A stretch of DNA of 64,000 bases from Nitrosopumilus sp. (lineage in GTDB: Archaea; Thermoproteota; Nitrososphaeria; Nitrososphaerales; Nitrosopumilaceae): NCBI GenBank assembly GCA_965224195.1, contig OZ245040.1, positions 1,600,001 through 1,664,000 of the forward strand, written 5' to 3'. Both the position numbers and the translations under genes were made by a program. Shown here one piece after another: positions 1,455 to 63,714 of the stretch; within the stretch, counting starts at the first letter, position 1; each line of letters begins with the position of its first letter. The notes under the pieces are model-generated. The model did no database searches. It saw only the letters and a list, made by a program, of their open reading frames with translations, and was not told where the DNA came from.

Positions 1455-1760
1455 GTTTGGATTAAGCATATATGAAATCAAGCAAGAAAGTCTTTGGAAA
1501 GAAAACTAACCATATCAGACATATTCACATTGCAGGTAAAAGAGACAACAATAACAAGATAGAAAGATTGAATGGTAAAATCAGAGACCGTGAAAAAGTA
1601 TTCAGAGGTCTCAAAAAGATAGACACTCCATCATTGACGGAATGAAAACCTACTACAATTTCACTAAAAAGCATCCATGGTTCTTTGAAAGGCAAGACAC
1701 CAGCAGAACAAGCCATGTAGATGGTAGGAACAAATGGATTACATTAATTCAAAATGCCAG
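1455..1760 (+). pseudogene. IS6-family-like (thaumarchaeal DDE) transposase, frameshifted C-terminal remnant
   Basis: Joined frames read ...HIRHIHIAGKRDNNNKIERLNGKIRDREKVFRGLKK...GMKTYYNFTKKH..SLKGKTPAEQA..GRNKWITLIQNA; marks the left edge of the island. Confidence 0.75.
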
Positions 1761-1851
1761 GCCTCTGCAAGGAAGATTCAGTCTAGCTTGTCCCTCGACA
1801 AGTTGGCAGAAAGGTCATATAATATTAGCAGTATAAAAAAAATACGGGATA

Positions 1852-7800: not shown

Positions 7801-10800
7801 TAATGTGTACTCGTAGATTTTTTCAGTATTATAACCTACAACAAACATCTTTGTTCCGTCTGTGTTAAATGCCATGCCTGTTGGATGCGTGTCCTGTGTG
7901 CCTACTGAGACAGAGCTATTTGCATAGGAGGCAGTGGATAAGTCAAAGGGAGTAGTTAATGTGTACTCGTAGATAGCATTATTGGCAGTACCTGCAACAA
8001 ACATCTTTGTTCCGTCTGTGTTAAATGCCATACCTGTTGGATGCGTGTCCTGTAAAGCTACTGGGTAATGGCGTACAAAGGTGGGATTGGATACGTCAAA
8101 GGGAGCATCTAATGTGTACTCGAAGACCTTCTCACTTTGATAACCTACAACAAACATCTTTGTTCCATTTGTGTTGAATGTTACGCTTTCTGGATCCGAC
8201 TCCCTGCTATTTACTGAGAAAGAGTTGTCTGTATAGGAGGCAGTAGACAAGTCAAAGCCCTCGTTTGCTATTATCTCATCAAAAGTTACTGCCAAAACTC
8301 CGGTTTCCTCATTTAGTGTTGCTGAATCAAATGTTGGCGGGATATTATCAGCAGCAAGTGGTGGCGGTGTGCCTGCCCCACCATCTACTACTACTGCAGG
8401 TATATTAAAGGAGGCAGATACAGGAGATGATTCCACAAAATAGTCTGGTCCAATGATCACTGCATATACATGTACATCGTATGACTCACCCGGTGTCAGG
8501 CCTGTTGCCGTATATGAGGTGTCATCTGCAGTGTCGTCGAGTTCAGAATCGTCAGAACTAATGACAGTCAATTGATAACTCACATCATCAATGGTATAAT
8601 ACTCATTGAAATCCACTGTAGGTGCAGCCCAAGTGATTTCAGCGGCTGTGCCGTTTATGACATTGACTAAAAGGTTGGTTGGCGCATCAAGTGGTGGAGG
8701 TAGCGGTATATCAAAGGATACAGCTGCGGCAGGTTGGGAGGACAGAACGGTTGAATCTGACAACAAGGCTTTTGCCTCAACTGTTACCTCATAAGATTTG
8801 CCCACTATCAGGTACGTCGTATGCTCGGTAGTGCCAGCAGGCACGGTATGCTGTACGCTGGTGCCAGCAGCAACATCAATGACATACACGATATAGGATA
8901 CGGAATTAATATCATAGAATGAATTGGCCGGTATTACAGGTGCAGTCCAGATGATGTCAACGGCTGTGGTAAATACATCCACTGAAAGGCCAGTTGGCGC
9001 AGCAAGTGGTGGTGGTACTGCTGCTACACTGTTAGTTACTGCAATGATATTGTCATATGATGCGAGAATCTCATTACCTGAAACATCAGATACAGCTGCT
9101 GCCAAGATGTCCAGTTCTGGGGTAGTCAATGCAATTACTGACTGTAATTGAGGTGCAGTCATCTTGATCTCTATGGAGGTGCTGTTGCCGACAGTTTCAA
9201 TGCTGGCACTGCTCAGTACCGTGCCGGTACCATTAACACTTCCCGACTCACTGATGAGCAGTTTGGATAGATCAACTGGAGTAGACAATGCATACTCGTA
9301 GACACGATTATGTTGAGCACCTACAACAAACATCTTTGTTCCAGCAGGGTTGAATGCCACGCCTCTTGGAGACGTGTCCTGTGTACCTACTGTGAGAGTG
9401 TCTGTATGGGAGACATTGGATAAGTCAAAGGGAGTAGATAATGTGTACTCGTAGATAGCATTATTGGTACTACCTGCAACAAACATCTTTGTTCCAGCCG
9501 GGTTAAATGCCACGCCTTCTGGACCCGTGTCCTGTGTACCTACTGAGAAAGAGCTATTTGCATAGGAGGCAGTGGATAAGTTAAAGGGAGTAGATAATGT
9601 ATACTCGTAGATTTTTTCAGTATTATAATCTACAACAAACATCTTTGTTCCGTCTGGGTTAAATGCCACATCATGTGGAGACGTGGCCTCTGAAGATACT
9701 GAGAAATTGCGTGTATGGGAGACATGGGATAAGTCAAAGGGAGTAGTTAATGTGTACTCGTAGATAGCATTATTGGTATTACCTGCAACAAACATCTTTG
9801 TTCCATTTGTGTTAAATGCCATACCTGTTGGATGCGTGTCCTGTAAAGCTACTGGGTAATGGCGTACAAAGGTGGGATTGGATACGTCAAAGGGAGCATC
9901 TAATGTGTACTCGAAGACCTTCTCACTTTGATAACCTGCAACAAACATCTTTGTTCCATTTGTGTTGAATGTTACGCTTTCTGGATCCGTGTCCTTGTTA
10001 TCTACTGAGAAAGAATTGTCTGTATAGACGGCAGTAGACAAGTCAAAGCCCTCGTTTGCTATTATCTCATCAAAAGTTATTGCCAAAACTCCGGTTTCCT
10101 CATCTAGTGCGGCTGACTCGAAGGTTGGCGGGGTATTGTCAGCAGCAAGTGGTGGCGGTGGTGATACTACCGCTACACTGTTAGTTACTACAATGGCATT
10201 GTCATATGATGCGAGAATCTCATTACCTGAAACATCAGATACTGCCGCTGCCAAGATGTCCAGTTCTGGAGTAGTTAATGCAAGGGCTGACTGTAATTGA
10301 AGTGCAGTAAGCTTGATCTCTATGGAGGTGCTGTTGCCGACAGTTTCAATGCTGGCACCGCTCAGTGCCGTGCCGGTACCATTAACACTTGCTAACTCAC
10401 TGATGAACAGTTTTGACAGGTCAACTGGAGTGGTTAATGCATACTCGTGGATATTCCCGCCATCATTACCTACAACAAACATCTTTGTTCCAGCAGGGTT
10501 AAATGCTACATCTGCCGGAATCTCGTCCCGTGCAGATACTGAGAAAGTGCCTGTATGGGAGACATTGGATATGTCAAATGGAGTAGTTAATGTGTACTCG
10601 TAGACATTGTCACTACCATAACCTACAACAAACATCTTTGTTCCAGCCGGGTTAAATGCCACACCTGACGGAGTACCCTCCCGTACCCCTATTGAGAAAG
10701 TGCCTGTATGGGAGGCAGTAGATACGTTAAAGGGAGTAGATAATGTGTACTCGTAGACAGCACCATTATTAGAACCTACAACAAACATCTTTGTTCCAGC

Positions 10801-11403
10801 CGGGTTGAATGCCACGTCTTCTGGATACGTGGCCTCTGAAGATACTGAGACATTGCGTGTATAGGAGGCAGTGGATAAGTTAAAGGGAGTAGTTAATGTG
10901 TACTCATTGACCTTTTCACTGTCAGTACCTATAACAAACATCTTTGTTCCAGCTGGGTTAAATGCCACGTCTTCTGGGGTGTCTTCCTTTAAAGATACTG
11001 AGAAATCGCGTTTATAGTCGGAGGAGGATACGTCAAAGGGAGTAGTTAATTCGTACTCGTAGATTTTGCCAGTACTAGAACCTGCAACAAACATCTTTGT
11101 TCCGTCTGGGTTAAATGCTACACCTGTTGGATCCGAGTCCTTGTTAGATACTGAGAAAGAGTTGTCTGTATAGTCAGCAGTAGACAGATCAAAGCCCTCG
11201 TTTGCGATTATCTCATTAAAAGTTATTGCCAAAACTCCGGTTCCCTCATCCAGTGCTGCTGACTCGAAGGTTGGCGGGGTGCTGTCAGGTGTAACTGCAA
11301 CAGGACTGCCCGGTGATGGTGCCTGTGCAGACACAAGAGACATGCCAGACAATGCAAGAACTGAGAAAAGCAAAAACAGCAAAAAGACACTCTTTGGAGC
11401 CAT
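1852..11403 (-). CDS. Giant secreted surface protein (3183 aa): four beta-propeller modules, several FN3 domains, Ala/Gln linker, C-terminal domain
   Basis: Signal peptide MAPKSVFLLFLLFSVLALSG; repeated blades FNPAGTKMFVVG..IYEYTLSTPFDLS; FN3 motifs APTNL..ITWTAP..TGLTPGESY. Confidence 0.85.
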   Translation of the reverse strand: MAPKSVFLLFLLFSVLALSGMSLVSAQAPSPGSPVAVTPDSTPPTFESAALDEGTGVLAITFNEIIANEGFDLSTADYTDNSFSVSNKDSDPTGVAFNPDGTKMFVAGSSTGKIYEYELTTPFDVSSSDYKRDFSVSLKEDTPEDVAFNPAGTKMFVIGTDSEKVNEYTLTTPFNLSTASYTRNVSVSSEATYPEDVAFNPAGTKMFVVGSNNGAVYEYTLSTPFNVSTASHTGTFSIGVREGTPSGVAFNPAGTKMFVVGYGSDNVYEYTLTTPFDISNVSHTGTFSVSARDEIPADVAFNPAGTKMFVVGNDGGNIHEYALTTPVDLSKLFISELASVNGTGTALSGASIETVGNSTSIEIKLTALQLQSALALTTPELDILAAAVSDVSGNEILASYDNAIVVTNSVAVVSPPPPLAADNTPPTFESAALDEETGVLAITFDEIIANEGFDLSTAVYTDNSFSVDNKDTDPESVTFNTNGTKMFVAGYQSEKVFEYTLDAPFDVSNPTFVRHYPVALQDTHPTGMAFNTNGTKMFVAGNTNNAIYEYTLTTPFDLSHVSHTRNFSVSSEATSPHDVAFNPDGTKMFVVDYNTEKIYEYTLSTPFNLSTASYANSSFSVGTQDTGPEGVAFNPAGTKMFVAGSTNNAIYEYTLSTPFDLSNVSHTDTLTVGTQDTSPRGVAFNPAGTKMFVVGAQHNRVYEYALSTPVDLSKLLISESGSVNGTGTVLSSASIETVGNSTSIEIKMTAPQLQSVIALTTPELDILAAAVSDVSGNEILASYDNIIAVTNSVAAVPPPLAAPTGLSVDVFTTAVDIIWTAPVIPANSFYDINSVSYIVYVIDVAAGTSVQHTVPAGTTEHTTYLIVGKSYEVTVEAKALLSDSTVLSSQPAAAVSFDIPLPPPLDAPTNLLVNVINGTAAEITWAAPTVDFNEYYTIDDVSYQLTVISSDDSELDDTADDTSYTATGLTPGESYDVHVYAVIIGPDYFVESSPVSASFNIPAVVVDGGAGTPPPLAADNIPPTFDSATLNEETGVLAVTFDEIIANEGFDLSTASYTDNSFSVNSRESDPESVTFNTNGTKMFVVGYQSEKVFEYTLDAPFDVSNPTFVRHYPVALQDTHPTGMAFNTDGTKMFVAGTANNAIYEYTLTTPFDLSTASYANSSVSVGTQDTHPTGMAFNTDGTKMFVVGYNTEKIYEYTLTTPFDLSSSSYANRSFAVGSQDTSPTGMAFNPDGTKMFVAGFQHDNIYEYTLTTPFDLSNVSHTDTLSVGSQDNSPRGVAFNPAGTKMFVVGTGSDRVHEYALTTPVDLSKLFISESGSVNGTGTALTGASIETVGNSTSIEIKITAPQLQSVIALTIPELDILEAAVSDVSGNQILALYDNAIAVTNSVAAVLPPPPPLAADNTPPTFESAALDEETGVLAVTFDEIIANEGFDLSTADYTDNSFLVASQDNSPQGVAFSTNGTLMFVVGNQNDSIYEYRLTAPFDVSTAAYADRSFSIHSQDTSPYDVAFNPAGTKMFVVGHTSENIYEYTLSSPFDLSTAAYADRSFSIHSQDSSLYGVAFNPAGTKMFVAGYANEKIYEYTLSSPFDVSSSSYTRDFPVGTQDNSPYGVTFNPAGTKMFVVGSQYDRVYEYALTTPFDLSSSSYTRHFPVGTQDNSPNGVTFNPAGTKMFVVGAQHNRVYEYALTTPVDLSKLLISESASVNGTGTALSGASIETVGNSTSIEIKLTAPQLQSALALTTPELDIMAAAVSDVSGNAIAAALNNAIAVTNSVAAVPAPPLAAPTGLSVAVSGTTATITWTAPAIPANSFYDISNVSYLVNVTDTAAGTTVPYTVPAGTTTTHTATNLTPGKSYEVTVEATALLSDSTVLSSQPTAAVSFAVSEPPSLDAPTNLSVAVSGTTATITWTAPTVVVNEYYTINDVSYQVTVVDSDGSGAASSGSITGTSYTATGLTPGESYNVYVVAYAVVGSSYTVESVEVSASFNMPAAAVVVVDSGAGTPPSADQIKVQNLEIEKTGNKRVTLTWKAPANSGDKVLDYYSISYNCPATHGTKYTEIHTGFTSVSIDDLDINGICRFQVTPIYPSGGGVNSLIFPGGDGGVTDKGLSAPLKDIPFTETPKDIQLTAAMNGSDAIKVSWLSISSDIVFYELSLGDGDDSRGLVPLKDFKYEDDRPTSQIIKNVDPGRTYTIYLVLYNYEGSVHSTTFIKYTVPVDSIPPKLESAALDEETGVLTITFDEIIANEGLSTTAPFDLSKLFISESGSANGTGTALTGASIETVGNSTSIEIKLTESQRLAVIALTVPELDILEAAVFDVSGNQIVAALNNAIAVTNSVQPPSLDAPTNLLVNVINGTAAEITWTAPAIPANPFYDINSVSYLVNVTDTDAGTTVPYTISDGTTTTHTATNLIPGKSYNASVKALVLLDSGDDLESSATAVSFDMPTPPSLAAPTNLSVNVINGTAAEITWTAPAIPANSFYDINSVSYLVNVTDTAAGTTVPYTISDGSTTTHTATNLIPGKSYEVTIEAKALLSDSAVLSSQPTAAVSFAVSEPPSLDAPTNLLVSVINGTTATITWTAPTVDVNDFYTINNVTYQVTVVDSDGSGAAASSGSITGTSYTATGLTPGKSYNVFVVADAAVGSTYTVQSSAVSASFDMPAAADAQAADAQAAAAQAAADAQAAADAQAAAAQAAADAQAAADAQAAADAAAQAAADAQDMADDIVPAPVVVTVNAAMYNSTAILLTWTQPPSLEVTGYDLSWVSENANGDPHTGGYISLDGVIGGTLESHIFNNVNPGETYYFTLSVFFNVEGSPQPFGSYDVTYTVPDPNADPLKDHKKKRSTGSSNEHYKKPTFGLSHLTESLIVNDGMCLNDSCVDVVSWHTKYPEDKILIDTTNYLQAKMYTDNTLRYVEFFFGVPRPGDASNAEVFVKVSLSRNYTSPNNYDVVRIDTTDTEGLLDGTVTAATIQPSKCLSADAQPNCHTVTLQFDFNEAPIHRAFAIAAVDMDRRVHTNYFNDGFVVLGESLNPADMHHVANSGKYHSNEYASTHQLTLTQTDRAKNLWADQWGFAWTQNDHGTWLQLERDEFVRYQDDISSVMTRTNSNYDSMISHERDRALQHAKNMYGSIYDKPSSDLAEPVTIWIVPSPTNKLQNPEILDAMKLEEAKAMSYLQHMVRADMSRK
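3250..3430 (-). repeat. Coding 15/18-bp tandem repeat (QAAADA)n
   Basis: Repeated gcttgggcatctgctgct units. Confidence 0.9.
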
Positions 11404-11490
11404 GGCTACAAAGACTCCGTCATCGTCATGCCATCAAGAAAGGCAGGACTTTGGGCTACAAAATATTCAGGCAATGGGAGTCTCGCTTCT

Positions 11491-11523
11491 GCACGCACGC
11501 ACACGCACACACACCCCCCCCCC
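11491..11523. repeat. (GCAC)/(AC) microsatellite plus C10 tract upstream of giant gene 1
   Basis: gcacgcacgcacacgcacacacacccccccccc, about 90-120 bp before the start at 11403. Confidence 0.85.
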
Positions 11524-11735
11524 AAATCAGTGATAGGCAAGATATAAGCAATATGCACATATTAACCAGAAAACACATGTATTTAATCATTTTGTAATCT
11601 GGGTTTTGCCAGCTTGTCTTGTCTTAAATTCTTGAAAAGAGGACTGGAACAACAGTCCAAGCGTTAGTATTTGACACTAGAGTATGCTCATCTAAGGTAA
11701 GGCATAAGCGCATATGAAACAGCAGACTGTCACAA

Positions 11736-12140
11736 TTGAACTGTGACGGGTTTGCAAATAAATGCCGCATTGCATATGATGTTCACAATGAGAAAATAAA
11801 TGACTTGGTAATGCGTTCTGCATGCGGTGCAGAGTTTCAAAATTATACGGCATATATTTACGAGACTGTATCTGTCAGTATAATTGCGTCAGTCAAGGGG
11901 GACTTTGACTTTGCATGTGCTGTTGTGGCCGTTTTGAGCAGACAGTACGCCAGATACCAGTCAATAGCATATCTGGACAACTTTGCAGGAGCAAAAGACT
12001 TGACAGTTCATTATTTCCCAGAGAAGGGCAGGGCTGCAGCTGATGAGTACATTGCAGTGAATCACCCAGACTTTGAAAGAATAGACATGTCAGAAATTGA
12101 ATCCATTGCTGCAAAGTTTCTGAAAAGATGCCAGTCTTGA
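11736..12140 (+). CDS. Hypothetical protein
   Basis: 134-aa ORF filling the gap between the two giant genes; no motif recognised. Confidence 0.5.
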   Translation: MNCDGFANKCRIAYDVHNEKINDLVMRSACGAEFQNYTAYIYETVSVSIIASVKGDFDFACAVVAVLSRQYARYQSIAYLDNFAGAKDLTVHYFPEKGRAAADEYIAVNHPDFERIDMSEIESIAAKFLKRCQS

Positions 12141-12262
12141 GGGCAGCAAATTATAGAGGCTAAAAACACATGCCGTGATAAATCCTGCGACCAGGGGTTT
12201 TTTTACATCTTTATAAATTCAAAAAACTTGCAACGTGTCCTGCTGCAAATCAAACTTTAGAA

Positions 12263-15200
12263 CTATTTTTTCTTTATTATTTCAAAATAATAAACAATGG
12301 CAGCAAACACAACGACAAAAAATATTATTGAAATTATTAGTAATTCACTCATCGATAGTTTAGGTGCAACAGGTTCAGGTGTTGGTTCAGGTGTGTATAC
12401 AGGCTCTGGTGTGTATACAGGCTCTGGTGTGTATACAGGTTCAGGTGTGTATACAGGTTCAGGTGTTGGTTCAGGTGTGTATACAGGTTCTGGTGTTAGC
12501 TCTGGTGTGTATACAGGTTCCGGTGTTGGCTCTGGTGCTCTGACAGATGACGGCCTGTTGTCCCTGCCGACAATGTCTTTTAACAGTTCATCCAAATTCA
12601 TATTATCATAATATACTATGCCAGGCAGTTCCTTCAGTATGATGTGGCCATCACAGTATGCCGCAGCAGATTCTACCTGTGCCTGTTTTTGTGATTTGTC
12701 GTAACTTTTTATCGACATTACATTTTCAGAAAGCATCTCTAAACCCTCAAAGCTAAACGCATATAGAGAGATGGGTACGTGCACGGACTTGAGAAGATCC
12801 TTCATGCTGGCCTGGGATGTCATATCAATGCCAACATTGGATGGATGCCCGTCCAAGACAATGGAGGCGCCAAGGTTGTCCCCATATGTACCTGCAACTA
12901 GTACCACATCATTTTCCAGTCCGCACTGGTTGTACAGTAGTAGTATTGGACTCATTGTAAAACCTACAGAGCCGCTGCTGCTGCTGCCACGGTCAGCAGG
13001 CTGTGGTGTAGTAGGCTGTGGTGCGATGGGTTTTGGTGTGATGGGTTTTGGTGGCAAGGCATCCTCTGGTATTTCTTTAGGAGTGCTGTCAATTACTGCA
13101 GTATCTAGTTCAACACTGACTGCATCTTCAATGACAATAGGATCCCTTACGGCAAGTACTAGGCTGTCATCCTTCTTCACCACATCTGCACCATCTGATG
13201 TTGGGATGTCATCAGCTAGTGACTTGGTGTGCTGCACTGCCGTACCATCAGGTGTAGAGCTGGTATTCTTTGTTACATCCACGCCGTCTGATGTTGGAAT
13301 ATTGTCAGCCAGTGATTTGACATATTGCTTGGTTACAGAGATACCATCAGATGTTGGAATGTCATCAGCTAGTGACTTGGTGTGCTGCACTGCCGTGCCA
13401 TCAGGTGTCAAGCTGGTATTCTTTGTTACATCCACGCCGTCTGATGTTGGAATATTGTCAGCCAGTGATTTGACATATTGTTTGGTTACAGAGATATCAT
13501 CAGATGTTGGGGCTTCATCAGATGTAGATATGGCATATAGTTTCACTACATCTGCATTGTCCCTTGTTGGGATGTCATCAGATATGGATCTAGAGTACCG
13601 CTTTACCACATCTGCACCATCTGATGTTTTGATAACATCAGCTAGAGATTTTACATATTGCTTTGTTACATTCACATCATCAGATGTTGGGATAGTATCA
13701 GATGGAGATATGGCATATTGTTTCACTACATCTGCACCATCAGATGTTGGAATGGTGTCAGCTGGAGATATGGCATATTGTTTCACCACATCTGCACCAT
13801 CTGATGTTGGAATGGTGTCAGCTGGAGATATGGCATATTGTTTCACCACATCTGCACCATCTGATGTTTGGATGTCATCAGCTAGTGATTTGACATATTG
13901 TTTGGTTACAGAGATACCATCAGATGTTGGAATGGTGTCAGCTGGAGATATGGCATATTGTTTCACTACATCTGCACCATCTGATGTTGGAATATTGTCA
14001 GCTAGTGATTTGACATATTGTTTGGTTACAGAGATACCATCAGATGTTGGAATGGTGTCAGCTGGAGATATGGCATATTGTTTCACTACATCTGCACCAT
14101 CTGATGTTTGGATGTCATCAGCTAGTGATTTGACATATTGTTTGGTTACAGAGATACCATCTGATGTTTGGATGTCATCAGATGGAGATATGGCATATTG
14201 TTTCACCACATCAACTGCGTCCTTTGATGGAGCTGCATCAGATGGAGATATGGCATACAGTTTCACTACATCTGCACCATCTGATGTTTTGATAATATCA
14301 GCTAGAGACTTTGCATATTGCTTTGTTACATCTACTACATCTGATGTTAGGATAGTATCAGATATGGATTTGACATATTGTTTGGTTACAGAGATATCAT
14401 CAGATGTTGGAGCTTCATCAGATGTAGATATGGCATATAGTTTCACTACATCTGCATTGTCCCTTGTTGGGATGTCATCAGATATGGATTTGACATATTG
14501 TTTGGTTACAGAGATATCATCAGATGTTGGGATAGTATCAGCTGCTAAGCTGGCATACAGTTTCGCCACAACCGCACCATCAGATGTTGGGATAGTATCA
14601 GCTGCTAAGCTGGCATACAGTTTCGCCACAACCGCACCATCAGATGTTGGGATAGTATCAGATATGGATTTGACATATTGTTTGGTTACAGAGATATCAT
14701 CAGATGTTGGAATTGTATCAGATGTAGATATGGCATATAGTTTCACTACATCTGCATTGTCCCTTGTTGGGATGTCATCAGATGTAGATCTAGAGTACCG
14801 CTTTACCACATCTGCATCATCTGATGTTGGAGCTTCATCAGATGTAGATATTGCATATAGTTTCACTACATCCGCATCATCTGATGTTTGGATGTCATCA
14901 GATATGGATTTGACATATTGTTTGGTTACAGAGATATCATCAGATGTTGGGATAGTATCAGATGTAGATCTAGAGTACCGCTTTACCACATCTGCACCAT
15001 CTGATGTTTGGATGTCATCAGCTAGTGATTTGACATATTGTTTGGTTACAGAGATACCATCAGATGTTGGAATATTGTCAGATGGAGATATTGCATATTG
15101 TTTCACTACATCTGCACCATCTGATGTTGGAATATTGTCAGCCAGTGATTTGACATATTGCTTGGTTACAGAGATATCATCAGATGTTGGAGCTTCATCA

Positions 15201-53150: not shown

Positions 53151-53244
53151 GAAAATTATTTTCAGAATTAGTAGAAAAGGTCAAGGTAATTGTGACATAA
53201 TCACATAGCAAAGACAAAAAAATAGCTTTTGAATTAATTTAGTT

Positions 53245-53340
53245 GGACCGGTCGTCTAGTTTGGTTTGGATGACGCACTCACACTGCGTAAGGAAATTAC
53301 TTTCCCGCAAAGGTCGTGGGTTCGAATCCCATCCGGTCTA
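53245..53340 (+). tRNA. tRNA-Val(CAC) with a 21-nt intron at non-canonical position 44/45
   Basis: Acceptor GGACCGG/CCGGTCT; anticodon arm ACGCA-CTCACAC-TGCGT; T-arm GTGGG-TTCGAAT-CCCAT; bulge-helix-bulge around 53291-53311. Confidence 0.92.
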
Positions 53341-53379
53341 TGTCGGTCATGGGTTTATTTACTAGAATCTACTAGGGAG

Positions 53380-53706
53380 TGTAGAATACCAAATAAGCTA
53401 AAGACGGTACTAAAAAGACTGGACAAACTTCCAGAGAGCCAGACAGGTATTATCTACGAGTTTAAAGGATATAAAGAAGACGAGGAGTGCTCAGAGCGTA
53501 ATGTTGTAAACTTGTTGGTGGTGTTAGAATTATTTGCACGGCATCGTGATGGGAAGAGCTTGTGTGATGTTACAAAAGAGGACATTTTGGGATTTTTGGA
53601 TCCAAGAAAAAAGTCACACGAGATAGACCCTGATGAGAAATGGAAGACTATATGGAACTATTGCCGCAACCACCTGGCAATCCTTTTACCGATGGTATAC
53701 CAATAA
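53380..53706 (+). pseudogene. Tyrosine integrase N-terminal (SAM-like) fragment next to the tRNA, truncated by an IS
   Basis: CSERNVVNLL..VTKEDILGFLD..DPDEKWKTIWN, resembling thaumarchaeal integrase N-termini. Confidence 0.7.
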
Positions 53707-54700: not shown

Positions 54701-55152
54701 GGGGGCAACAAAAACAAAGCTTGTTGAGTTGTATTATCATCATATATGTTAACAGTAACCGTAAATGAACCGCTTCTATCAAACTGTATAGGAAATGATA
54801 CTTTGCCGTTTGTTATGTGTGTTTTTGGATGTGATAAATAGATTAACCCATCATGGTCTATCGTCATATCAAAGTCAATATTGAGATGCATTATGTAAGT
54901 ATTGGAATTGTAAAAAACTAAACTAACATCGTTGTGATTTTTGTTTGGATTTTTATATACATTTAATAAAATATCCACATTGTTGAGTTGCTTGAGTTGT
55001 TCGGTTTGAGGTACCATAAAATATGTTTTAGATACAATAGGATCATTTGTCTTAAATTCTTCTGCTGTAAGATAAACACTATACCCAAGCCCAACAACAA
55101 CAATGCCAGCAGGTATGATAAATATGAACAGTTTATTCAAGATTATGGCCAA
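54664..55152 (-). CDS. Membrane-anchored protein, 3' end truncated by the IS
   Basis: N-terminal TM; the last codons are read from the IS right end. Confidence 0.6.
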   Translation of the reverse strand: MAIILNKLFIFIIPAGIVVVGLGYSVYLTAEEFKTNDPIVSKTYFMVPQTEQLKQLNNVDILLNVYKNPNKNHNDVSLVFYNSNTYIMHLNIDFDMTIDHDGLIYLSHPKTHITNGKVSFPIQFDRSGSFTVTVNIYDDNTTQQALFLLPPTLSNKSFPTSF

Positions 55153-56015
55153 TTAAAATGATAGCTAGATCTGAGTTGTGCCATATAATTTGTATAGCGA
55201 CAAACTTCGTCAGTGTCTATGTAAAGTGCACATTCATTTTCATCAGTCATCGCAGTGCCGTTTGAATAAACCATAAGATACGGAAATCCATGATTGTCAG
55301 GAAAATCAGATTGCATGTAATCATTCATGGTAGTAAAACATTTACGTAAATTACTACCATCATTATAAAATATACAGTATGGTTTGCCTTCAATATCTAT
55401 TGTTATTGGTTTTAGCATTGTTATACGTTGACAGTCTTTTTCCACACCTTTAAAAAGTGCACATCCATTTTCATCAGTCATTGCAGTACCGTTTGAATAA
55501 ACCATAAGATACGGTCCATGGTCTATAAATGAAGATCCTTTGTATTGTTTTAATTCCTGAATATTCCTAAAACATGCATAAAGATCAGACCCATCAGGAT
55601 AAAAAATGCAATATGGCTCATATCTACGATCAAGTTTGTCAAGCGGTTCTGCTACTTTTATCAAGGACTTCATTGAAGTACCACTATCCAAATTTACATT
55701 TACACATGCATTAAGATTGGCAGGGCAGTAATTCATGTATGATTGATTTTCATTGTGTGGTGAAAATTGCATAACACCTTCTTTGTCTGTAAATTTAGGC
55801 TTTTCTTGCAGTTTCTCAGATACTATACCCCATCCACGCTCAATTAGTTTTATGGCAGTATTTTCCTTTACACATGCAAGCTTACCATCATTTGTTTTCT
55901 CAAGAATTGTAAAGTAGCATTTATTTTCTAATCCCATAGTTTCAGGAACTGTTGAAAATATCACAACAACTAAAGATATGGTTAGTAATAGTAAGATATG
56001 CAAGATCAATACCAA
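55143..56015 (-). CDS. Secreted Cys-containing protein with an internal duplication
   Basis: Signal/TM; thaumarchaeal-type ACVKENTAIKLIERGW motif; PYCIFY..PYLMVYSNGTAMTDENxCAL occurs twice. Confidence 0.7.
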   Translation of the reverse strand: MVLILHILLLLTISLVVVIFSTVPETMGLENKCYFTILEKTNDGKLACVKENTAIKLIERGWGIVSEKLQEKPKFTDKEGVMQFSPHNENQSYMNYCPANLNACVNVNLDSGTSMKSLIKVAEPLDKLDRRYEPYCIFYPDGSDLYACFRNIQELKQYKGSSFIDHGPYLMVYSNGTAMTDENGCALFKGVEKDCQRITMLKPITIDIEGKPYCIFYNDGSNLRKCFTTMNDYMQSDFPDNHGFPYLMVYSNGTAMTDENECALYIDTDEVCRYTNYMAQLRSSYHFNWP

Positions 56016-56040
56016 AAATAGTAGTTATTAAACATTTGAT

Positions 56041-56418
56041 TTAATCCAGATCATAAAACTCCACAATATTTTCCCAAGGGCTAAAAATACTATAGTTCAT
56101 ACTTGAAGGACATTTGTCAAAGTTTTCTATTCCATTAATACCAACAGCAGCAAGTTCTTTATTATATGGCCTATGTGTATCAGTGCATAGTGTACCTTGA
56201 TGCATTCCAACAATATTTGCAGTTCCATCATCCATATGGATTATTGATCCTCCGCTATCCCCTAACATACTTGTATAATTTCCAATCATCATATCTTTAA
56301 AAACTATATTATGTTTTATAAATGTCAAATCAGTAAAATATAATATGCCATTTTTTATATTGTTTTCTTTTCCATACAAGTGTAATGAATCGCCATATTG
56401 TAATTTCGTGGAACCCAT
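56041..56418 (-). pseudogene. Trypsin-like serine protease, C-terminal fragment
   Basis: GDSGGSII..IVGMHQG..FSPWENI; His/Asp half missing. Confidence 0.65.
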
Positions 56419-56587
56419 ACCTTGTAGGGAGACACTCCTCCATCACAGAAAAGATAGACATTTTACTTGACCACCAGCTAACATCATTTGCAGGCTGGAC
56501 AGTAAACACTAAAAGAAGGGCAATATTAATCCGAAGCTTTTCCCAATCATATTAAAACATCATAGGTAATTTATCACTCGCAAGATA

Positions 56588-56809
56588 TCATTGCGGTGGT
56601 AGTTTATTGCCCATACACAACAACACCTCTCTATCCCATCTTTCTGGAATACACACATCTACAAGTTGATCCGTTCTACAAGTATTCCAATCATGTATTT
56701 TAGTATACTCTATATGACATTGAAAAAGATATACAATGTAAGGCGAAAAAAACAAAAAAATTGCAACTAGGACAATCATATAAATAATCTTAGTTGATAT
56801 CCAACGCAT
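56588..56809 (-). CDS. Small membrane protein
   Basis: Hydrophobic N-terminus; overlaps the stop of the upstream ORF. Confidence 0.4.
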   Translation of the reverse strand: MRWISTKIIYMIVLVAIFLFFSPYIVYLFQCHIEYTKIHDWNTCRTDQLVDVCIPERWDREVLLCMGNKLPPQ

Positions 56810-57653
56810 CTACAACATTTTCCCAAGGACTAAATATTTTGAATCGCCTATCAGCGTTTTCACAATCACGCTCATTCAATAAATCATGTGTAGACATTTT
56901 TATGCCATTATCCAATGTAATAGTACATGTTGAACCAACATGCAAACCCAATAACTGTGCGGTATTATTAACGTATTTTACAAATATAGGAGAATCACTA
57001 TCACCTCCTTGCGAATCATAATTGGCAGCTCCTTGTTTTATCAAAGTGTAATAATTATTAAAAGAACTACCAGGTATTGTATATCCCATTGTGGCAGTTA
57101 CATTGTATTGTTCCATAGTTCCACCATCATCATTATTTCTTCCTGCTATGTAAACAGGAATGGTTTTATCAACGTATGTATAACCGCCAAAGCTTGTTAT
57201 GTTAAAAATACTGTCATTGTATCGTAATTCATTTACATTAACATCAATATCAGAATTTGTAACATTAACATAAGCAACATCAGCCAGAACATTTGTACCA
57301 GAAAGAAGTGTTTTGTTGCCAAGTATATCACCTATCATGGCCTCTTGAAAACGATCTTTAAATTGACTATAACCTCCATTTTGATCCATATCACTTCGGT
57401 ATAATCCAAAGGTTATTGGATTTCTAGAAGCTTGCGGTTGCTCATAACAGACAAATTCATATTCATTATTTTTAACTTCGATAAATGTAATGTTGATAAA
57501 ATTTTCATTCCAATCTTTAATTTTTTCAGATACAAAAATAGCCTTTCCACGTTCAAAGAAATAAGGACATAATAACAAACCTTCATCATCTTCTGCATAG
57601 GCCATCCCTTCAAAATCAGGATACCATAAACTTGCAAATTCATTATTGTCCAC
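56790..57653 (-). CDS. Trypsin-like protease homologue, probably degenerate or partial
   Basis: ADVAYV, SQGGDSDSPIF (GDSG changed to GDSD), LLGLHVG, FSPWENV. Confidence 0.6.
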   Translation of the reverse strand: MDNNEFASLWYPDFEGMAYAEDDEGLLLCPYFFERGKAIFVSEKIKDWNENFINITFIEVKNNEYEFVCYEQPQASRNPITFGLYRSDMDQNGGYSQFKDRFQEAMIGDILGNKTLLSGTNVLADVAYVNVTNSDIDVNVNELRYNDSIFNITSFGGYTYVDKTIPVYIAGRNNDDGGTMEQYNVTATMGYTIPGSSFNNYYTLIKQGAANYDSQGGDSDSPIFVKYVNNTAQLLGLHVGSTCTITLDNGIKMSTHDLLNERDCENADRRFKIFSPWENVVDALDIN

Positions 57654-57721: not shown

Positions 57722-58306
57722 TCAAATTCTACTGAAAATATCATAATACAGTTTTGAGAACTTTATTGCTTTTTTAGCCCCTTTTTCGGCGCCACTTTCA
57801 AGAATCATCCCTTCTTCTACTTGATATATTTGGGAAATTTTACGCATTATAGAGTATTCAGAAGTTTTTGTAAAATCTCCATCATGTTTCTTATCTCGTT
57901 TTACATGAACCAAAGGATTACGCATTTTTCGTAATTTATGCAACTGAGTACTTTCCTTTATTGTGATGTATTTTTCATTTTTTGCCAAATCAATAATTTG
58001 ACTAAATCCACAAGAATTTACAAAATCTAGATTTTTCTTGTCTTCTCTTAAATCATAATATCCCCTAAACGAATGTTTCAAACCTTCTTCAAAGGTCATT
58101 TGCATCATGACGATAGTTGCAAAAAACAATCCTTCAAGCCAACAACGATGTGCTTCAAAAAAGTATTCTTGTGCAATCATTCCACCTCCTAAACGTCCCT
58201 CAAATTCAATATTCAGTGATTTCAAGAAATCATTTCTTTGTACTCTTCCTGCAAAAAGCATTTCATCGGCTTGCCTAACAATGTTTTCTGAATCAGTTTT
58301 CAACAA
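57722..58306 (-). CDS. HEPN-domain protein (DUF4145-like)
   Basis: EAHRCWLEGLFFATIVM..FEEGL; Rx4H motif RNPLVH. Confidence 0.7.
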   Translation of the reverse strand: MLKTDSENIVRQADEMLFAGRVQRNDFLKSLNIEFEGRLGGGMIAQEYFFEAHRCWLEGLFFATIVMMQMTFEEGLKHSFRGYYDLREDKKNLDFVNSCGFSQIIDLAKNEKYITIKESTQLHKLRKMRNPLVHVKRDKKHDGDFTKTSEYSIMRKISQIYQVEEGMILESGAEKGAKKAIKFSKLYYDIFSRI

Positions 58307-58563
58307 AATATTTGCTATCTTGTTCTTTAAATCAGATATGTTTCAATTTTTAAAAAAGATTGCAATATTTTCATAATACAAAATCCTTATTACTAAATTT
58401 AACGTACTGTATGTATAATGGTAATTGAAGATTATGTAGAGTTTGGGATACCATTAGCTGATCTTGTTTTACAATATAGCGAACAACTTGTTGTGGGTTT
58501 GTCTGGAGCAGGAATTTTTGCACTTTTAAAAAATTAACTTAACTCGGCATGGTCATTGCTTTT

Positions 58564-58854
58564 TTAGGCACGGTCATTACGAGTTAAAAATTCAAGGCCC
58601 TTTTTTGTGAGTTGAATTTCATATACCATAAAAACAACAATGCCACCGATAGGTCTGTTTTTACGTCTCATGATAATTAATTGAGAATTGGACATAGCTC
58701 TTGTGACATCATACCATGAACTCATCGGTATGTCTAATTTAGCAGCGAATTCAGTAATCCAAGGATAACCATCACCAATTTTTATCAAAAAATTATTGTC
58801 AATCAAATACTCTATTAGAAATAATTTGTAATGATGATATTTCCCCTTTCGCAA
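58564..58854 (-). CDS. Winged-helix DNA-binding protein
   Basis: ITEFAAKLDIPMSSWYDVTRAM...IQLTKKGLEFL. Confidence 0.6.
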   Translation of the reverse strand: MRKGKYHHYKLFLIEYLIDNNFLIKIGDGYPWITEFAAKLDIPMSSWYDVTRAMSNSQLIIMRRKNRPIGGIVVFMVYEIQLTKKGLEFLTRNDRA

Positions 58855-58969
58855 GATAAATTTTATCTGAAATTTGAGCGTATTTAAGGAAAATTTGATA
58901 TTGTATATATAAAAATTATTTTATTATCAATATTTTCTAAATTTCGGGATTTATAGAATTTATGAATTT

Positions 58970-60118
58970 CTATATTTTTTCTATTTGTACTAATTGATCA
59001 TACAGATAAGCTTGTTCGGGTAACAAGTTTTTTATTAATTTCTCTTCGTCACTGTCTTTCCCATATTTAATTTTCAGTTCACTCATTATGCCTTTTTTTT
59101 CTTTCATTTCCAAGCCGAAAATTCTTTTTAATTCTATCAAGATAATAGTAATTTTTTTGGAAAGATCATCTAATTCAATTTTTTTTGCAAATTTTTTCAA
59201 AACTAACTTTACAAATACATTAATCAACAAAATGTCTATTATGTGAATATATGTTGGATAACGTGCTTTACCTAACATTTCAGTTGTAAATTTACCAAGA
59301 CGCCCTTCATAGGATTTGTTTAATTTTATATGAGTATCAATTTCTAATAATCCGCTTGAAAATATACCCAAATCTGCAAGTATGACATCAAATGATGGCG
59401 GATCATTTTTAAAAAAAGATATTTCATCATTGGATATTTTTTCAAAAGCATCTATGATTTCTGGAATTAATAGTTTCTCCGAACTAGATTTTATCAATGC
59501 GGCAATATCGTAAATTTGCTTTGGCACATCAAGTCCTCCTTCAGGATCAATTCCTATTGTGTTAAATGGAAGTGTTGTTAATTTATCACCAATTAAAGAG
59601 CCATGATCATAAACAGATAAAGGGAAATTTATCGGAAGTCCTATAATTTCAATGCCATTTTTTATTTTCTTTGATTGAATATTCATGTTATTTCCATAAA
59701 AAATCTCGATTTTTAGATCTGCTTCTTCATTGATTACTGATTTATACCCACAAAAATAGGTCAACAAAGGTAATTCCTTATTACTTACTTTTTTTGGAAC
59801 GTGTGGGTCGCCAATGTCTACTATTCCTTTGAGTTTTTCTGAAACTTTTTTCATTGCCTCAATTACTTCTTCTCTAGAATTTCCAGTTACAATGTCAATA
59901 TCAACACTAAGTCGTCGTAAAGTTTTATCATGTAGATGGAAAGGAACTGCCATTCCTCCTTTAACAACACAATCTGGAATTACCTCTTGAATGTGAGTTA
60001 ATACTTCAAAATCCATGATGAATTGTTCTAATGGTAATGAATCTCTAAACCCATGAGATTCCCTAATAGTGTCAATGCCTTCTTTATTCAAAATATCTTT
60101 GAAGTGTAGTTCTACCAC
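58970..60118 (-). CDS. AbiEii-family nucleotidyltransferase (type IV TA toxin)
   Basis: VVKGGMAV..RRLSVDIDI, KIEI, LIGDKLTTL, KQIYDI. Confidence 0.88.
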   Translation of the reverse strand: MVELHFKDILNKEGIDTIRESHGFRDSLPLEQFIMDFEVLTHIQEVIPDCVVKGGMAVPFHLHDKTLRRLSVDIDIVTGNSREEVIEAMKKVSEKLKGIVDIGDPHVPKKVSNKELPLLTYFCGYKSVINEEADLKIEIFYGNNMNIQSKKIKNGIEIIGLPINFPLSVYDHGSLIGDKLTTLPFNTIGIDPEGGLDVPKQIYDIAALIKSSSEKLLIPEIIDAFEKISNDEISFFKNDPPSFDVILADLGIFSSGLLEIDTHIKLNKSYEGRLGKFTTEMLGKARYPTYIHIIDILLINVFVKLVLKKFAKKIELDDLSKKITIILIELKRIFGLEMKEKKGIMSELKIKYGKDSDEEKLIKNLLPEQAYLYDQLVQIEKI

Positions 60119-62034
60119 TAAAATTCAGATCCCAAAATTTTTTTAACTAATTCTGATTTTTTGATAAAATTTGCATAAGTTTGCAAATTTTCATAATTAA
60201 TCAAAGTAGATCTTTTCATTGTTGCAAATATTCGTCTCAACTCTGAATTATCGAGTGGACCATTATGACTATGCGTTTCATTTACTAAATCAAGAAATGC
60301 TTTTTCAGGAGCAGCAATAGTAGACCCTCTAATTACGGCGTATTCTCTTATTGAAATAATTCTTTCAGTGGCAGGCATTTTTAGAAACACGTCTAACGCT
60401 TTTTTATCTGGCGCATATATAATAGTAAATTTTTCGTGGAATTTTTCTGCTAATAGCTCTGAAAGATATTCTCCTTTCTCAGGTTCGGTGTAAAGTGTAT
60501 AGATTATTTTCCCACGTGAGTTATGCAAATAGGGTGTAAGAGTAGATAACGCGGTAAATTGAAATTTGAATCCAAAGTTTTCTTTAAGATAGTCATGGAC
60601 TTCAACTAATTCATCGGTTAATTTGTAATTCGGAATATTTGGGATTTTTACTTCCCTCTCCCTAAAAATTTCTTTTTTATTGCTTTTTTCTGACCATGTG
60701 TTTAAAAATTCTTTGATATCATAATTTCTCTTTTCTATTAATTTTTCAAAGTTTGGATTTTCTCCAATCAATTTTATTTCTGAAGCAATTATTCCAATTA
60801 GGAATAAAGGATTTTTTACAAATCCAAATGCTTCATCGTCTTTATTTATTGTTACTTTGATCTTCGAATTTTGTTTTTCTATAATGTATAATGGCTCATT
60901 TTTGAGGGATTTTATGCCTATTTTCATCAAACTATTTCCTACTTTTGTCTCAAAAGGTTCAGTATTATCCAATAATTCTTGTGAAGTTTTTGAACGTACA
61001 CTACGCTCAAGATATTGTGCAGAAGATTTCTTAGTAAAATAATCAAATACAGATTCAACAGATACAGTGTTTTCACTTTTAGATTTTGATGATTGTATTA
61101 TTTGTTTGAATTCAAGAGAGGATCTGAAAACATTAACTGCTTTTTCATATTCTTGACTTTCTTCAATGAATGCACTTTTGTTAAAGTTTACAGGGACATG
61201 ATCTAAATTTAATTCTCCAATTATCTTTGCATTTTCAGGATGTGGAGGAAATCCAAATTTTTCATATGCTTTTATCAGTCTTCCATTTCTAAATAAATGA
61301 AGTCCATAGTGTCCCTTTATAGAACGTTTTTTTAGTAATGCAACATAACCGTTAATTTTTTTTCCAAAATCTAATTCAATCTGTATATTTTTTTTAGTTC
61401 CGTCTACAATGTTAGGTTTTGAAGGTTTGCAAAAAACCGTATTAATTTGAATTGAAATTTGTTCTGTATTCAAATAAGGAAAATATCGTATACCAAAACT
61501 TTCTTTGAATTTTGAAACTTGGTTGGGATATAATGGTACATTTAATTCAGAAATTATAATTCTCGTCCCATGCCAATTTTCTTCATCCGTTAAAGTTTTT
61601 TCAGTGACAACAAAATTTTTCCAGTTTTGTGTGTCATCAGATAACCAATTTTTTTCATCATACTCTGCAGAATATTCTTTATTAGAATTAATTTTAGATG
61701 TAATAATAATAAATTTTTTTCCCAATGCAGAACATGCACTTTTCATTCCAATCCCAAATTGTCCTAATTCACCATCAATTTTTGTTCCCTTTGCAATAGT
61801 CATTGCATTTGTAAGGTCTTGTTTATCCATACCAGAACCATCATCTCTTATTCCGATCCATTTTTTTTGAAAATCTAAATGAATATCGATTATTTCTTTT
61901 TCATCAGAAATTCTTGCATCAATAGAATTATCTAGCAATTCAGCAACTGCTTGTTCTGTCCGATACCCAACAAGACCTAGTTTTTGGATAAGGGACTTGT
62001 CTGGAGTGATATCTACATGAAAATTATTATCCAT
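60118..62034 (-). CDS. GHKL/MORC-type ATPase fused to a C-terminal AbiEi-like domain
   Basis: ELLDNSIDA, IRDDGSGM, GQFGIGMKSA, HGTRI, FRNGRLI, VNFNKS; C-terminal TIAAPEKAFLDL; TAGTG overlap with the AbiEii start. Confidence 0.8.
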   Translation of the reverse strand: MDNNFHVDITPDKSLIQKLGLVGYRTEQAVAELLDNSIDARISDEKEIIDIHLDFQKKWIGIRDDGSGMDKQDLTNAMTIAKGTKIDGELGQFGIGMKSACSALGKKFIIITSKINSNKEYSAEYDEKNWLSDDTQNWKNFVVTEKTLTDEENWHGTRIIISELNVPLYPNQVSKFKESFGIRYFPYLNTEQISIQINTVFCKPSKPNIVDGTKKNIQIELDFGKKINGYVALLKKRSIKGHYGLHLFRNGRLIKAYEKFGFPPHPENAKIIGELNLDHVPVNFNKSAFIEESQEYEKAVNVFRSSLEFKQIIQSSKSKSENTVSVESVFDYFTKKSSAQYLERSVRSKTSQELLDNTEPFETKVGNSLMKIGIKSLKNEPLYIIEKQNSKIKVTINKDDEAFGFVKNPLFLIGIIASEIKLIGENPNFEKLIEKRNYDIKEFLNTWSEKSNKKEIFREREVKIPNIPNYKLTDELVEVHDYLKENFGFKFQFTALSTLTPYLHNSRGKIIYTLYTEPEKGEYLSELLAEKFHEKFTIIYAPDKKALDVFLKMPATERIISIREYAVIRGSTIAAPEKAFLDLVNETHSHNGPLDNSELRRIFATMKRSTLINYENLQTYANFIKKSELVKKILGSEF

Positions 62035-62096
62035 ATGAAAAGAACTTAAATCTAGAATTTAAGACTTTTTCTCGTTTTATGCTCATTTGAGCCTGC

Positions 62097-62161
62097 ATAT
62101 ACAGTATATACAATTTGTATATACTGTATATATCTAGAAAATATTGGTTTTTCTAGATATA
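62097..62161. promoter_or_regulatory. Two adjacent palindromes upstream of the ATPase-AbiE operon (candidate operators)
   Basis: ATATACAGTATATACAA-T-TTGTATATACTGTATAT (17-bp arms) and TATATCTAGAAAA-7nt-TTTTCTAGATATA (13-bp arms). Confidence 0.6.
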
Positions 62162-62981: not shown

Positions 62982-63714
62982 TTATAATCCTTGTAATGAT
63001 TTTTTGAGTTTAACAATTTCTTCTTTTAACATTTCTTTATTTTCTGTAAAATGATTTGGTGTAACTTTTGCGATATCATCAAGATGTTGTTGATATCCCA
63101 TAATTTTGAGTACTGAAGTTGCGCGTTCCAAAGTATCATTTGCTTTTGCAAGTTTTTCTTCATAATTTTCCATCATTTTTTTAGTGTCCTCTATTTTTTC
63201 ATCAAATTCTGTTGCGGATTGAATTCCTAACGGCTTTCCACATTTAGAACAAATTTTAGCATCTGGAGCATTTGGTACCTCACAGATATGACAGATTTGA
63301 GGCGTTTCAACCAAATTTCCTGTTTCTTTACGCTTGATTCCATAGTGATTCAATATGACATTTTCAACATCAGCATTAATCATGTGAACATATCTGGCAG
63401 GCATTTTTGACGAGTTAGACCAACCATGTCGTTTACGAAGTTGAGCTTCAGTCATAAAATTAGCAGATTCAGTAGCTTCTGAATGTCTAAATAATTTCAT
63501 GTTGATTTTCTTTGGCAATCCTGCAATGGTACATCTACGTGCAAGCATTTGTCGCGATGCACTGCAGGATAATGGTTCTCTAAACTTTTTCGGACTAGTA
63601 TTAATCCACAAAGGGGAATCAGGATTATCCCTCATAGGATGAGTGTTAATCCAAGAAGACAGATTAGATACTGAACGAATTAATCGAATAGGTCTAGGAC
63701 CTGTTTTTCCATCA
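62982..63714 (-). pseudogene. Tyrosine recombinase/integrase C-terminal half, interrupted near 63715
   Basis: DGKTGPRPIRL, LFRHSEAT, RHGW, MPARYVH (catalytic Tyr), CHIC..CSKC; homology stops abruptly upstream. Confidence 0.85.

Follow-up and report, generated by a model that had tools for sequence, protein, structure and literature searches.

An AbiEi-type antitoxin domain headed by a MORC-like ATPase and paired with an AbiEii nucleotidyltransferase in Nitrosopumilus

In a 64,000-nucleotide (nt) stretch of the genome of Nitrosopumilus sp. (assembly GCA_965224195.1, contig OZ245040.1, positions 1,600,001 to 1,664,000 of the forward strand; hereafter the window, to which all coordinates refer unless another locus is named), we describe two overlapping genes that apparently represent an undescribed and widespread variant of the AbiE/MenAT family of toxin-antitoxin systems. 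The first gene encodes a 638-residue fusion protein, in which a GHKL ATPase, an S5-like region and a middle domain are followed by an AbiEi-type antitoxin domain, and the second encodes an AbiEii nucleotidyltransferase, the predicted toxin (Table 1). We read the pair as a toxin-antitoxin cassette of the abortive-infection type whose ATPase-headed antitoxin would double as a switch, and put the probability of this reading at roughly 0.6. A first-pass annotation of the same DNA had already described the fused protein, its overlap with AbiEii and the replacement of the antitoxin's DNA-binding head, all of which hold up below. Its proposal of a new defence system proves overstated, since the pair is a variant of a known family whose PADLOC AbiEi model recognizes the isolated C-terminal domain.

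AbiE of Streptococcus agalactiae and Lactococcus and the MenA3/MenT3 pair are COG5340-DUF1814 toxin-antitoxin systems of type IV/VII. The window pair has in common with them a bicistronic operon with the antitoxin gene first, a DUF1814 nucleotidyltransferase with its GG, S/T-x-D-x-D, K and D residues, and an antitoxin with an AbiEi-type C-terminal domain. These are three of the sequence-level defining features of AbiE/MenAT; the fourth, a winged helix-turn-helix (wHTH) head, is missing. Unlike the antitoxins of those systems, the window protein lacks the autoregulating N-terminal wHTH; a GHKL ATPase, an S5-like region and a novel middle domain, about 460 residues in all, stand in its place, and the window toxin differs from theirs in its length of about 380 amino acids (aa) with a long helical tail.

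Table 1. Features of the AbiEi-fusion/AbiEii locus and its surroundings (positions in the window)
Feature	Position	Strand	Basis
Fusion gene (GHKL, S5-like, middle and AbiEi C-terminal domains; 638 aa), predicted antitoxin and switch	60118-62034	-	Open reading frame, Pfam, homologues, alignment
GHKL (Bergerat) ATP-binding core, residues 24-126	61657-61965	-	HATPase_c_3, E 4.7e-21 (Pfam)
S5-like transducer region, residues 227-301	61132-61356	-	Morc6_S5, E 7.5e-5, 23.3 bits, below the 26.2 cut-off
Middle alpha/beta domain, about residues 348-448, no known family	60691-60993	-	AlphaFold model of residues 330-638
AbiEi-type C-terminal domain (Pfam DUF6577), residues 462-638, 177 aa	60121-60651	-	DUF6577, PADLOC AbiEi, hhalign
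AbiEii (DUF1814) nucleotidyltransferase gene, 382 aa, predicted toxin	58970-60118	-	PF08843, PADLOC AbiEii
Two inverted repeats, candidate operator or promoter elements	62097-62161		60-130 nt upstream of the fusion start
YjcQ-like wHTH gene, 96 aa	58564-58854	-	Pfam YjcQ, just above cut-off
194-aa open reading frame with RNPLVH (Rx4H)	57722-58306	-	Motif; no family match
tRNA-Val	53244-53341		ARAGORN

An antitoxin domain with an ATPase head

Judged by its profile matches, the domain at the C-terminus of the 638-aa protein is an AbiEi antitoxin domain. Scanned alone, 22 of the family's 35 C-terminal domains match DUF6577 (best E value 5.5e-12) and 23 of the 35 match the PADLOC AbiEi model PDLC02235; the window's own domain aligns with model positions 70-235 of 240 at E 1.6e-5. 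In the full-length window protein, the DUF6577 match extends over residues 471-634 at E 1.5e-3, below the Pfam cut-off. When 1.84 billion representative proteins were searched with a profile of this domain, 263 matched at E <= 1e-3. The best 150 of these 263 comprise 26 proteins of at least 600 aa that carry the domain at their very end, 96 proteins of 200-311 aa, 5 intermediates and 23 shorter pieces. When 55 rows of short proteins were sampled (5 fragments of fusions and 2 ambiguous rows included), 48 showed DUF6577, 48 the PADLOC AbiEi match (best E 3.4e-26) and 14 the AbiEi_4 wHTH. Standalone DUF6577 proteins of the Thermoproteota, about 275 aa long, have AbiEi_4 in front of the domain at E about 1e-6, and AbiEii is the next gene downstream in five of seven such loci. 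Short proteins that carry the domain were also sought with a word index, which found only four, fragment-like in appearance.

The relation between fused and standalone forms is most direct in a profile alignment. Given 48 standalone proteins, cleaned of fragments, as template, hhalign aligned positions 9-176 of the fusion C-terminal domain onto template positions 73-238 of 268 with a probability of 99.9% (E 7.9e-36). Because the match begins at template position 73, it begins just after the wHTH. By this alignment the GHKL-S5 module is in the place that the wHTH has in the standalone relatives, and family-library scans of the 638-aa protein found no HTH family. The standalone wHTH(AbiEi_4)-DUF6577 proteins, found in Thermoproteota and bacteria, share with the fusion both the C-terminal domain family and an AbiEii partner directly downstream; they differ in their length of 230-310 aa and their wHTH head, and the fusion domains lie on a branch separate from theirs. 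A tree of 124 C-terminal domains sets 39 fusion rows (27 full-length proteins and 12 fragments, the latter recognized with a profile of the fusion-specific middle domain) against 74 standalone rows, 11 ambiguous short rows being left out of the comparison. All 39 fall on one side of a single branch with one label change, which is consistent with one fusion event, and the fusion appears on this tree to have had a single origin.

The protein is conserved end to end in 28 full-length members. A segment running from D8 to G23, immediately upstream of the GHKL core, is invariant in their alignment, as are the GHKL motif residues E32, N36, D64, G66, G68, G91, G94, G96, G156 and T157, residue K286 of the S5-like region, and, towards the C-terminus, F491-T494, E564, Y565, P576, D582 and L583, the last three within or at the end of the APEKAFLDL string (residues 575-583). 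A regular expression for Bergerat motifs I-III fits 112 of the best 120 of the 415 homologues described below. The Morc6_S5 match, below threshold in the window protein, rises above the cut-off in relatives of the GHKL part that are not fused, and PF17942 is carried by some members of the fusion family in precomputed Pfam annotation. We call the head MORC-like because the top solved relatives of the fusion-family profile are the eukaryotic proteins MORC4 (7k7t, E 4.2e-17), MORC3 (5ix1, E 2e-13) and MORC2 (9cdi, E 2.6e-9); membership in MORC proper is not established, since the S5 match is sub-threshold and the partner genes differ. Between head and antitoxin domain, the AlphaFold model of residues 330-638 (mean predicted local distance difference test score, pLDDT, 86.3) delimits the middle domain. 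Its profile selects fragments of fusions and no other proteins of standalone length, and by this measure the domain is specific to the fusion family.

Pairing with AbiEii and distribution

The fusion and AbiEii genes are translationally coupled: base 60118 belongs both to the TAG stop codon of the fusion and to the GTG start codon of AbiEii, a one-base overlap read as TAGTG. The AbiEii product matches PF08843 (E 1.1e-11, 45.6 bits against a cut-off of 22.5) and the PADLOC AbiEii model (E 5.6e-22). Residues G54, G55, R69, S71, D73, D75, D178, K179, K200 and D204 are invariant in 26 sequences, so that S71-x-D73-x-D75 preserves the S-x-D-x-D active-site motif with its phospho-acceptor serine intact. 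From their catalytic residues both partners, the ATPase of the fusion and AbiEii, look active. The counterparts of S71, D73, K179 and D204 are S78 (a phosphoserine), D80, K189 and D211 in MenT3 and S67, D69, K171 and D186 in MenT4 (PMC7450476; this and the other papers cited by identifier are drawn on for part of their text).

A predicted complex of the C-terminal domain with AbiEii lends weak support to direct contact, with a median score of 0.33 against 0.00 for the best of three controls; at least 92% of contacts agree between runs, and the partners have pLDDT values of at least 83. In calibration 58 of 80 solved complexes attained the mark, as did 2 of 110 mismatched pairs; however, only 7 of the 80 solved complexes scored 0.60 or less, and so did both passing mismatches. 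These counts are approximate because purpose-made alignments were used.

The fusion is not confined to the window. Among 8000 scored candidates, 415 proteins are related to it at E <= 1e-3; of the best 120 of these, 118 span 600-720 aa, with 43-99% identity and 96-100% coverage, and the other two are 451 and 549 aa long. Where the source gives a name, they are annotated as 'ATP-binding protein' or 'hypothetical protein', and the named sources are Thaumarchaeota/Nitrosopumilus and a Candidatus Acidoferrales bacterium. The class was sampled evenly with 401 genomes, and 36 of them have the fusion, including 34 of the 223 genomes of its own family and 17 of the 83 of its own genus; a single genome may hold as many as three copies. 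Relatives of AbiEii occur in 33 of the 401. Five plasmid matches were obtained, all limited to the N-terminal GHKL part, with none covering at least 80% of the query. A metagenome scan with N-terminal patterns yielded 80 loci, of which 76 encode GHKL relatives without the AbiEi domain and L006-L009 alone encode fusions.

The pairing itself is conserved, as the first-pass annotation had asked of other genomes. Across the 401 genomes, a fusion match is no more than 400 nt away for 39 of the 45 AbiEii match rows. Of the six rows that depart from this, one is the displaced second half of a split gene, one begins a contig, and four are the weakest matches of all (E 1e-16 to 1e-22). Conversely, AbiEii is missing from 19 of the 58 fusion match rows, 13 of them near-full-length and away from contig edges. 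We further compared 35 loci besides the window; three came from genome contigs, four from metagenomes and the other 28 from the search of the class. L004 was set aside as being the window, L086 as coinciding with L001, and L005 as a weak GHKL match that is unrelated. A complete AbiEii of at least 340 aa follows directly downstream in 22 of the 35, and in 15 of these 22 its automatically called start lies between -11 and +7 nt from the fusion stop. The other 13 loci comprise two cut by a contig end, one with a 193-aa AbiEii reading frame, six with truncated remnants and four with none.

A toxin almost never found without the fusion, and a fusion that often outlasts the toxin, are together the expected signature of a toxin-antitoxin pair; antitoxins that outlive decayed toxins are the usual pattern. 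The genes on either side vary from locus to locus, from an RNA ligase with DUF488, to a multicopper oxidase with ribosomal protein S13, to a dihydroxy-acid dehydratase. Because these flanking genes differ, the two genes move as a cassette.

Some loci have features of their own. In the L096 region (G250:C2:506416-508931), AbiEii lies in two pieces, residues 1-174 and residues 173-379, with about 1.4 kilobases (kb) between them, an arrangement that suggests an insertion into the toxin gene with the fusion gene left intact. Locus L129 (G292:C2:800000-818000) carries two fusion genes 6.6 kb apart (4665-6560 and 11296-13212), with AbiEii directly downstream of the first only. The metagenome loci L010-L036 form a sister group of 505-550-aa GHKL+Morc6_S5 proteins with other C-termini, 31-43% identical over the first 300 residues or so, the DITPDKSL N-terminus included. 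Downstream of the sister protein of L017 is an SNF2/PLD helicase-nuclease; others have small open reading frames (ORFs) of no known family downstream.

Leader, downstream genes and surroundings

Upstream of the fusion gene, the leader (62035-62161) contains two inverted repeats with perfect arms, of 17 nt at 62097-62131 and of 13 nt at 62129-62161. Of 11 homologous upstream regions compared, nine (besides the window, those of L001, L003, L087-L089 and L093-L096) likewise have repeats containing TCTAGA and, 10-30 nt ahead of the start codon, a AATTCTAGAT motif, which persists even at 54-62% protein identity. The AATTCTAGAT motif could be a TATA or operator element for autoregulation without a wHTH.

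The first-pass annotation had noted two further co-oriented genes downstream, a wHTH gene and a HEPN gene. The wHTH stands by its YjcQ match. The HEPN label is not confirmed, because the 194-aa protein, for all that RNPLVH is present, matched no Pfam, NCBIfam or PADLOC family. As members of the system both were rejected: neither gene was found in any other fetched locus, and the HEPN-like gene was found in only 2 of 100 genomes of relatives, G699, which is outside the 401-genome fusion table, and G174, which is not among the genomes of that table with a fusion match. The 194-aa protein belongs to a conserved family without a name, 27 of its 30 Atlas matches being in clusters with no common Pfam family and the other three in a set whose listed cluster has DUF4145 in 15% of its members. 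Together, the YjcQ-like wHTH gene and the 194-aa protein may form a separate small module.

The pair had also been placed inside a decayed element integrated at a tRNA gene. A tRNA-Val gene, an ORF with a DDE transposase match in Pfam and a low G+C content (0.29-0.30 at 57-62 kb, with 0.245 at 62-63 kb; outside, 0.34-0.38 at 50-55 kb, 0.33-0.34 at 63-65 kb and higher values beyond) bear out part of this description. A search reaching to 80 kb showed no attachment-site-like repeat of the tRNA-Val, so the borders of the island are undefined, and a decayed integrated element around the pair is plausible, if not delimited.

Several other sequences lie nearby. ARAGORN reports the tRNA-Val as 98 nt long, which leaves room for an intron, and a 146-aa ORF overlaps it (region 53244-53706). 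A 217-aa ORF at 62982-63635 has a zinc ribbon and, by eye, the RHS..ATE / HGW / Y.H pattern of a tyrosine-recombinase C-terminus; no integrase family matched it in Pfam at E <= 0.01. On the minus strand at 55143-57653 are several ORFs without a family match that resemble decayed or duplicated secreted proteins; here a 61-nt direct repeat (55223/55454) codes for a repeated PYLMVYSNGTAMTDEN motif, and strings resembling a trypsin-like active site, GDSGG and GGDSDSP, were seen by eye in the ORFs at 56041-56418 and 56790-57653. Just past the window end, in a stretch whose G+C content is higher (about 0.43), is an ORF of 2,839 aa (L128, G000:C1:1664001-1680000, 1530-10049, minus strand).

Proposed mechanism, alternatives and known systems

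By analogy with MenT and AbiEii, the nucleotidyltransferase would block translation through the addition of nucleotides to tRNA 3' ends. The AbiEi domain of the fusion is predicted to bind AbiEii and hold it inactive, most probably because it prompts the toxin to auto-phosphorylate the invariant Ser71. Toxins of the MenT/AbiEii kind attach nucleotides to tRNA 3' ends, and MenA1, MenA3 and AbiEi silence their toxins through induced auto-phosphorylation of a serine or threonine (PMC11375011; bioRxiv 10.64898/2026.01.19.700257). The GHKL head, in the manner of MutL, Hsp90 and MORC proteins, would dimerize on ATP; a foreign DNA state or protein might trigger or block this ATP-driven dimerization or clamping, and the resulting state of the head could change the grip of the C-terminal domain on the toxin, so that release would be coupled to a signal of infection or stress.

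Several results weigh against reading the pair as an AbiE-type cassette with a switch. No PADLOC AbiEi match was obtained at E <= 1e-2 for the full-length fusion, its only PADLOC match being the MzaB-like one at the N-terminus; AbiEi is matched by the isolated domain only. The model of the C-terminal domain is a confident one (pLDDT 91.3, predicted template modelling score 0.89), and S. agalactiae AbiEi (6y8q_A) has the highest probability that Foldseek listed for it, 0.80, with template modelling scores of 0.46/0.43; at E 0.087 the similarity to the solved AbiEi is not significant, no match in the Protein Data Bank (PDB) reaching E <= 1e-3. For the two-domain model of residues 330-638 there was likewise none at E <= 1e-3, with 6y8q at rank 25 (probability 0.66), and a search of the C-terminal profile against PDB sequences returned no AbiEi or MenA chain, only chance-level matches at E >= 0.3. 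The structural support being weak, the AbiEi case rests on sequence profiles and gene context. To these points are added the just moderate support of the branch that underlies a single origin (Shimodaira-Hasegawa-like approximate likelihood ratio test, 84.7), and the viral contigs, where two patterns gave 58 matches and no confirmed relative. Further, no AbiEii at E <= 1e-15 adjoins 13 of the 51 near-full-length fusions that lie away from contig edges, and for this reason the fusion may have a role independent of the toxin, or these may be orphan antitoxins. The sensing role of the ATPase, finally, is pure inference.

The most specific form of the switch, in which a MORC-type, ATP-driven clamp would serve as the infection sensor of a tRNA-targeting toxin, its head, on binding or hydrolysing ATP or on capturing foreign DNA or protein, switching the AbiEi domain between holding and releasing AbiEii, is offered as a tentative idea that we regard as rather doubtful. 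An alternative account makes the pair a plain addiction or selfish module, in which the GHKL-S5 head merely substitutes for the wHTH, as a dimerizing element or in DNA-binding autoregulation, with neither sensing nor defence. Much of what we observe would fit any toxin-antitoxin module: the toxin that is never alone, the patchy multi-copy distribution and the varied flanks. The recurrent inverted repeats and AATTCTAGAT motif of the leader are likewise as expected if the operon is autoregulated; inverted repeats are what canonical AbiEi uses for its autoregulation (bioRxiv 10.64898/2026.01.19.700257), and eukaryotic MORCs bind DNA. Yet an ATPase with every catalytic residue invariant across 43-99% identity is a costly substitute for a wHTH of 60 residues, and GHKL/MORC-type ATPases recur in known defence systems (the Mza match below; PMC2292703), and we consider the addiction account unlikely.

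A kinase account fares less well. According to it, the GHKL domain would be a kinase of the SpoIIAB/CapK type that phosphorylates Ser71 of AbiEii, the AbiEi domain docking the substrate. Toxins of the MenT/AbiEii group are indeed silenced by phosphorylation of a serine or threonine two residues before the catalytic aspartate, the position of the invariant Ser71, and GHKL-fold serine kinases that govern a toxin-antitoxin pair are known in CapK/VapKSC (PMC13373217). However, the fusion has an S5-like region with an invariant lysine and is nearest to MORC ATPases rather than to anti-sigma or histidine kinases, its Pfam matches at E <= 0.01 include neither a STAS nor a kinase-type family, and canonical AbiEi and MenA reach phosphorylation without a kinase domain; we hold this account to be improbable. 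It is more improbable still that the fusion is the main effector, a MORC-like protein acting on foreign DNA with AbiEii secondary and dispensable, for although there are the 13 near-full-length fusions without AbiEii, six more loci with toxin remnants only, and a non-fused GHKL relative in the classical MORC context of an SNF2/PLD helicase-nuclease in one locus (PMC2292703), Pfam and NCBIfam scans found no nuclease or other effector domain in the fusion, whose sole other recognizable domain is the antitoxin domain, and in this clade AbiEii hardly ever occurs without the fusion.

Set beside other systems with GHKL proteins, the cassette read here as a switchable AbiE variant shares parts and differs in its partner. 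The prokaryotic MORC and paraMORC families, as described in the available text of PMC2292703, resemble the fusion in having GHKL with all ATP-binding motifs and S5 (in the fusion an S5-like region), a sporadic, laterally mobile distribution, and C-terminal extensions that differ by family. Their partners are helicases, methylases and nucleases of restriction-modification, or they are fused to RecB-like, TIR or unknown domains, whereas the conserved partner of the window fusion is AbiEii and not a restriction-modification gene; that text, taken without its supplementary architecture lists, mentions no nucleotidyltransferase or toxin partner. CapK-CapS/VapKSC is alike in that a GHKL-fold, signal-responsive protein regulates a toxin (PMC13373217). 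CapK itself has an HTH-STAS-GHKL architecture of the SpoIIAB kinase type without S5, acts on a STAS partner and the VapC PIN toxin, and has no sequence relation to the fusion beyond the fold class. The best PADLOC and NCBIfam match of the N-terminal 100 residues or so is MzaB of the Mza anti-phage system (E 5.1e-9 and 3.6e-12), a match limited to residues 15-119 and, for NF041932, to residues 16-119 with 45.4 bits against a cut-off of 850; no other Mza genes were seen.

As the first-pass annotation had supposed, no named system with this architecture emerged. A fusion of an AbiEi domain to a GHKL protein together with AbiEii is not described in the titles and abstracts searched, subscription journals and supplementary files lying outside that search, and DUF6577 is not mentioned in the literature searched, again with subscription journals outside. 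In the available text of PMC3632139, PMC12988326 and bioRxiv 10.64898/2026.10.19.760177, supplements outside, the architecture is not mentioned either. Surveys of archaeal AbiE may undercount the fusion, because it is annotated as 'ATP-binding protein' and has no full-length PADLOC AbiEi match.

The finding adds no new category of system, and its interest is to the fields of toxin-antitoxin activation and archaeal immunity. To our knowledge, the question of how toxins of AbiE/MenAT systems come free of their antitoxins is still open, and the antitoxins we know of are small DNA-binding proteins without an obvious sensor. An antitoxin domain joined to an enzyme with a nucleotide-driven conformational switch offers a testable handle on toxin activation. 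The module is common, mostly in Nitrosopumilaceae, globally important archaea in which, as far as we know, few defence systems have been recognized. If the head does act as an infection sensor, no earlier toxin-antitoxin or abortive-infection system would be GHKL-gated, and marine ammonia-oxidizing archaea would have in it a major immune module so far unrecognized.

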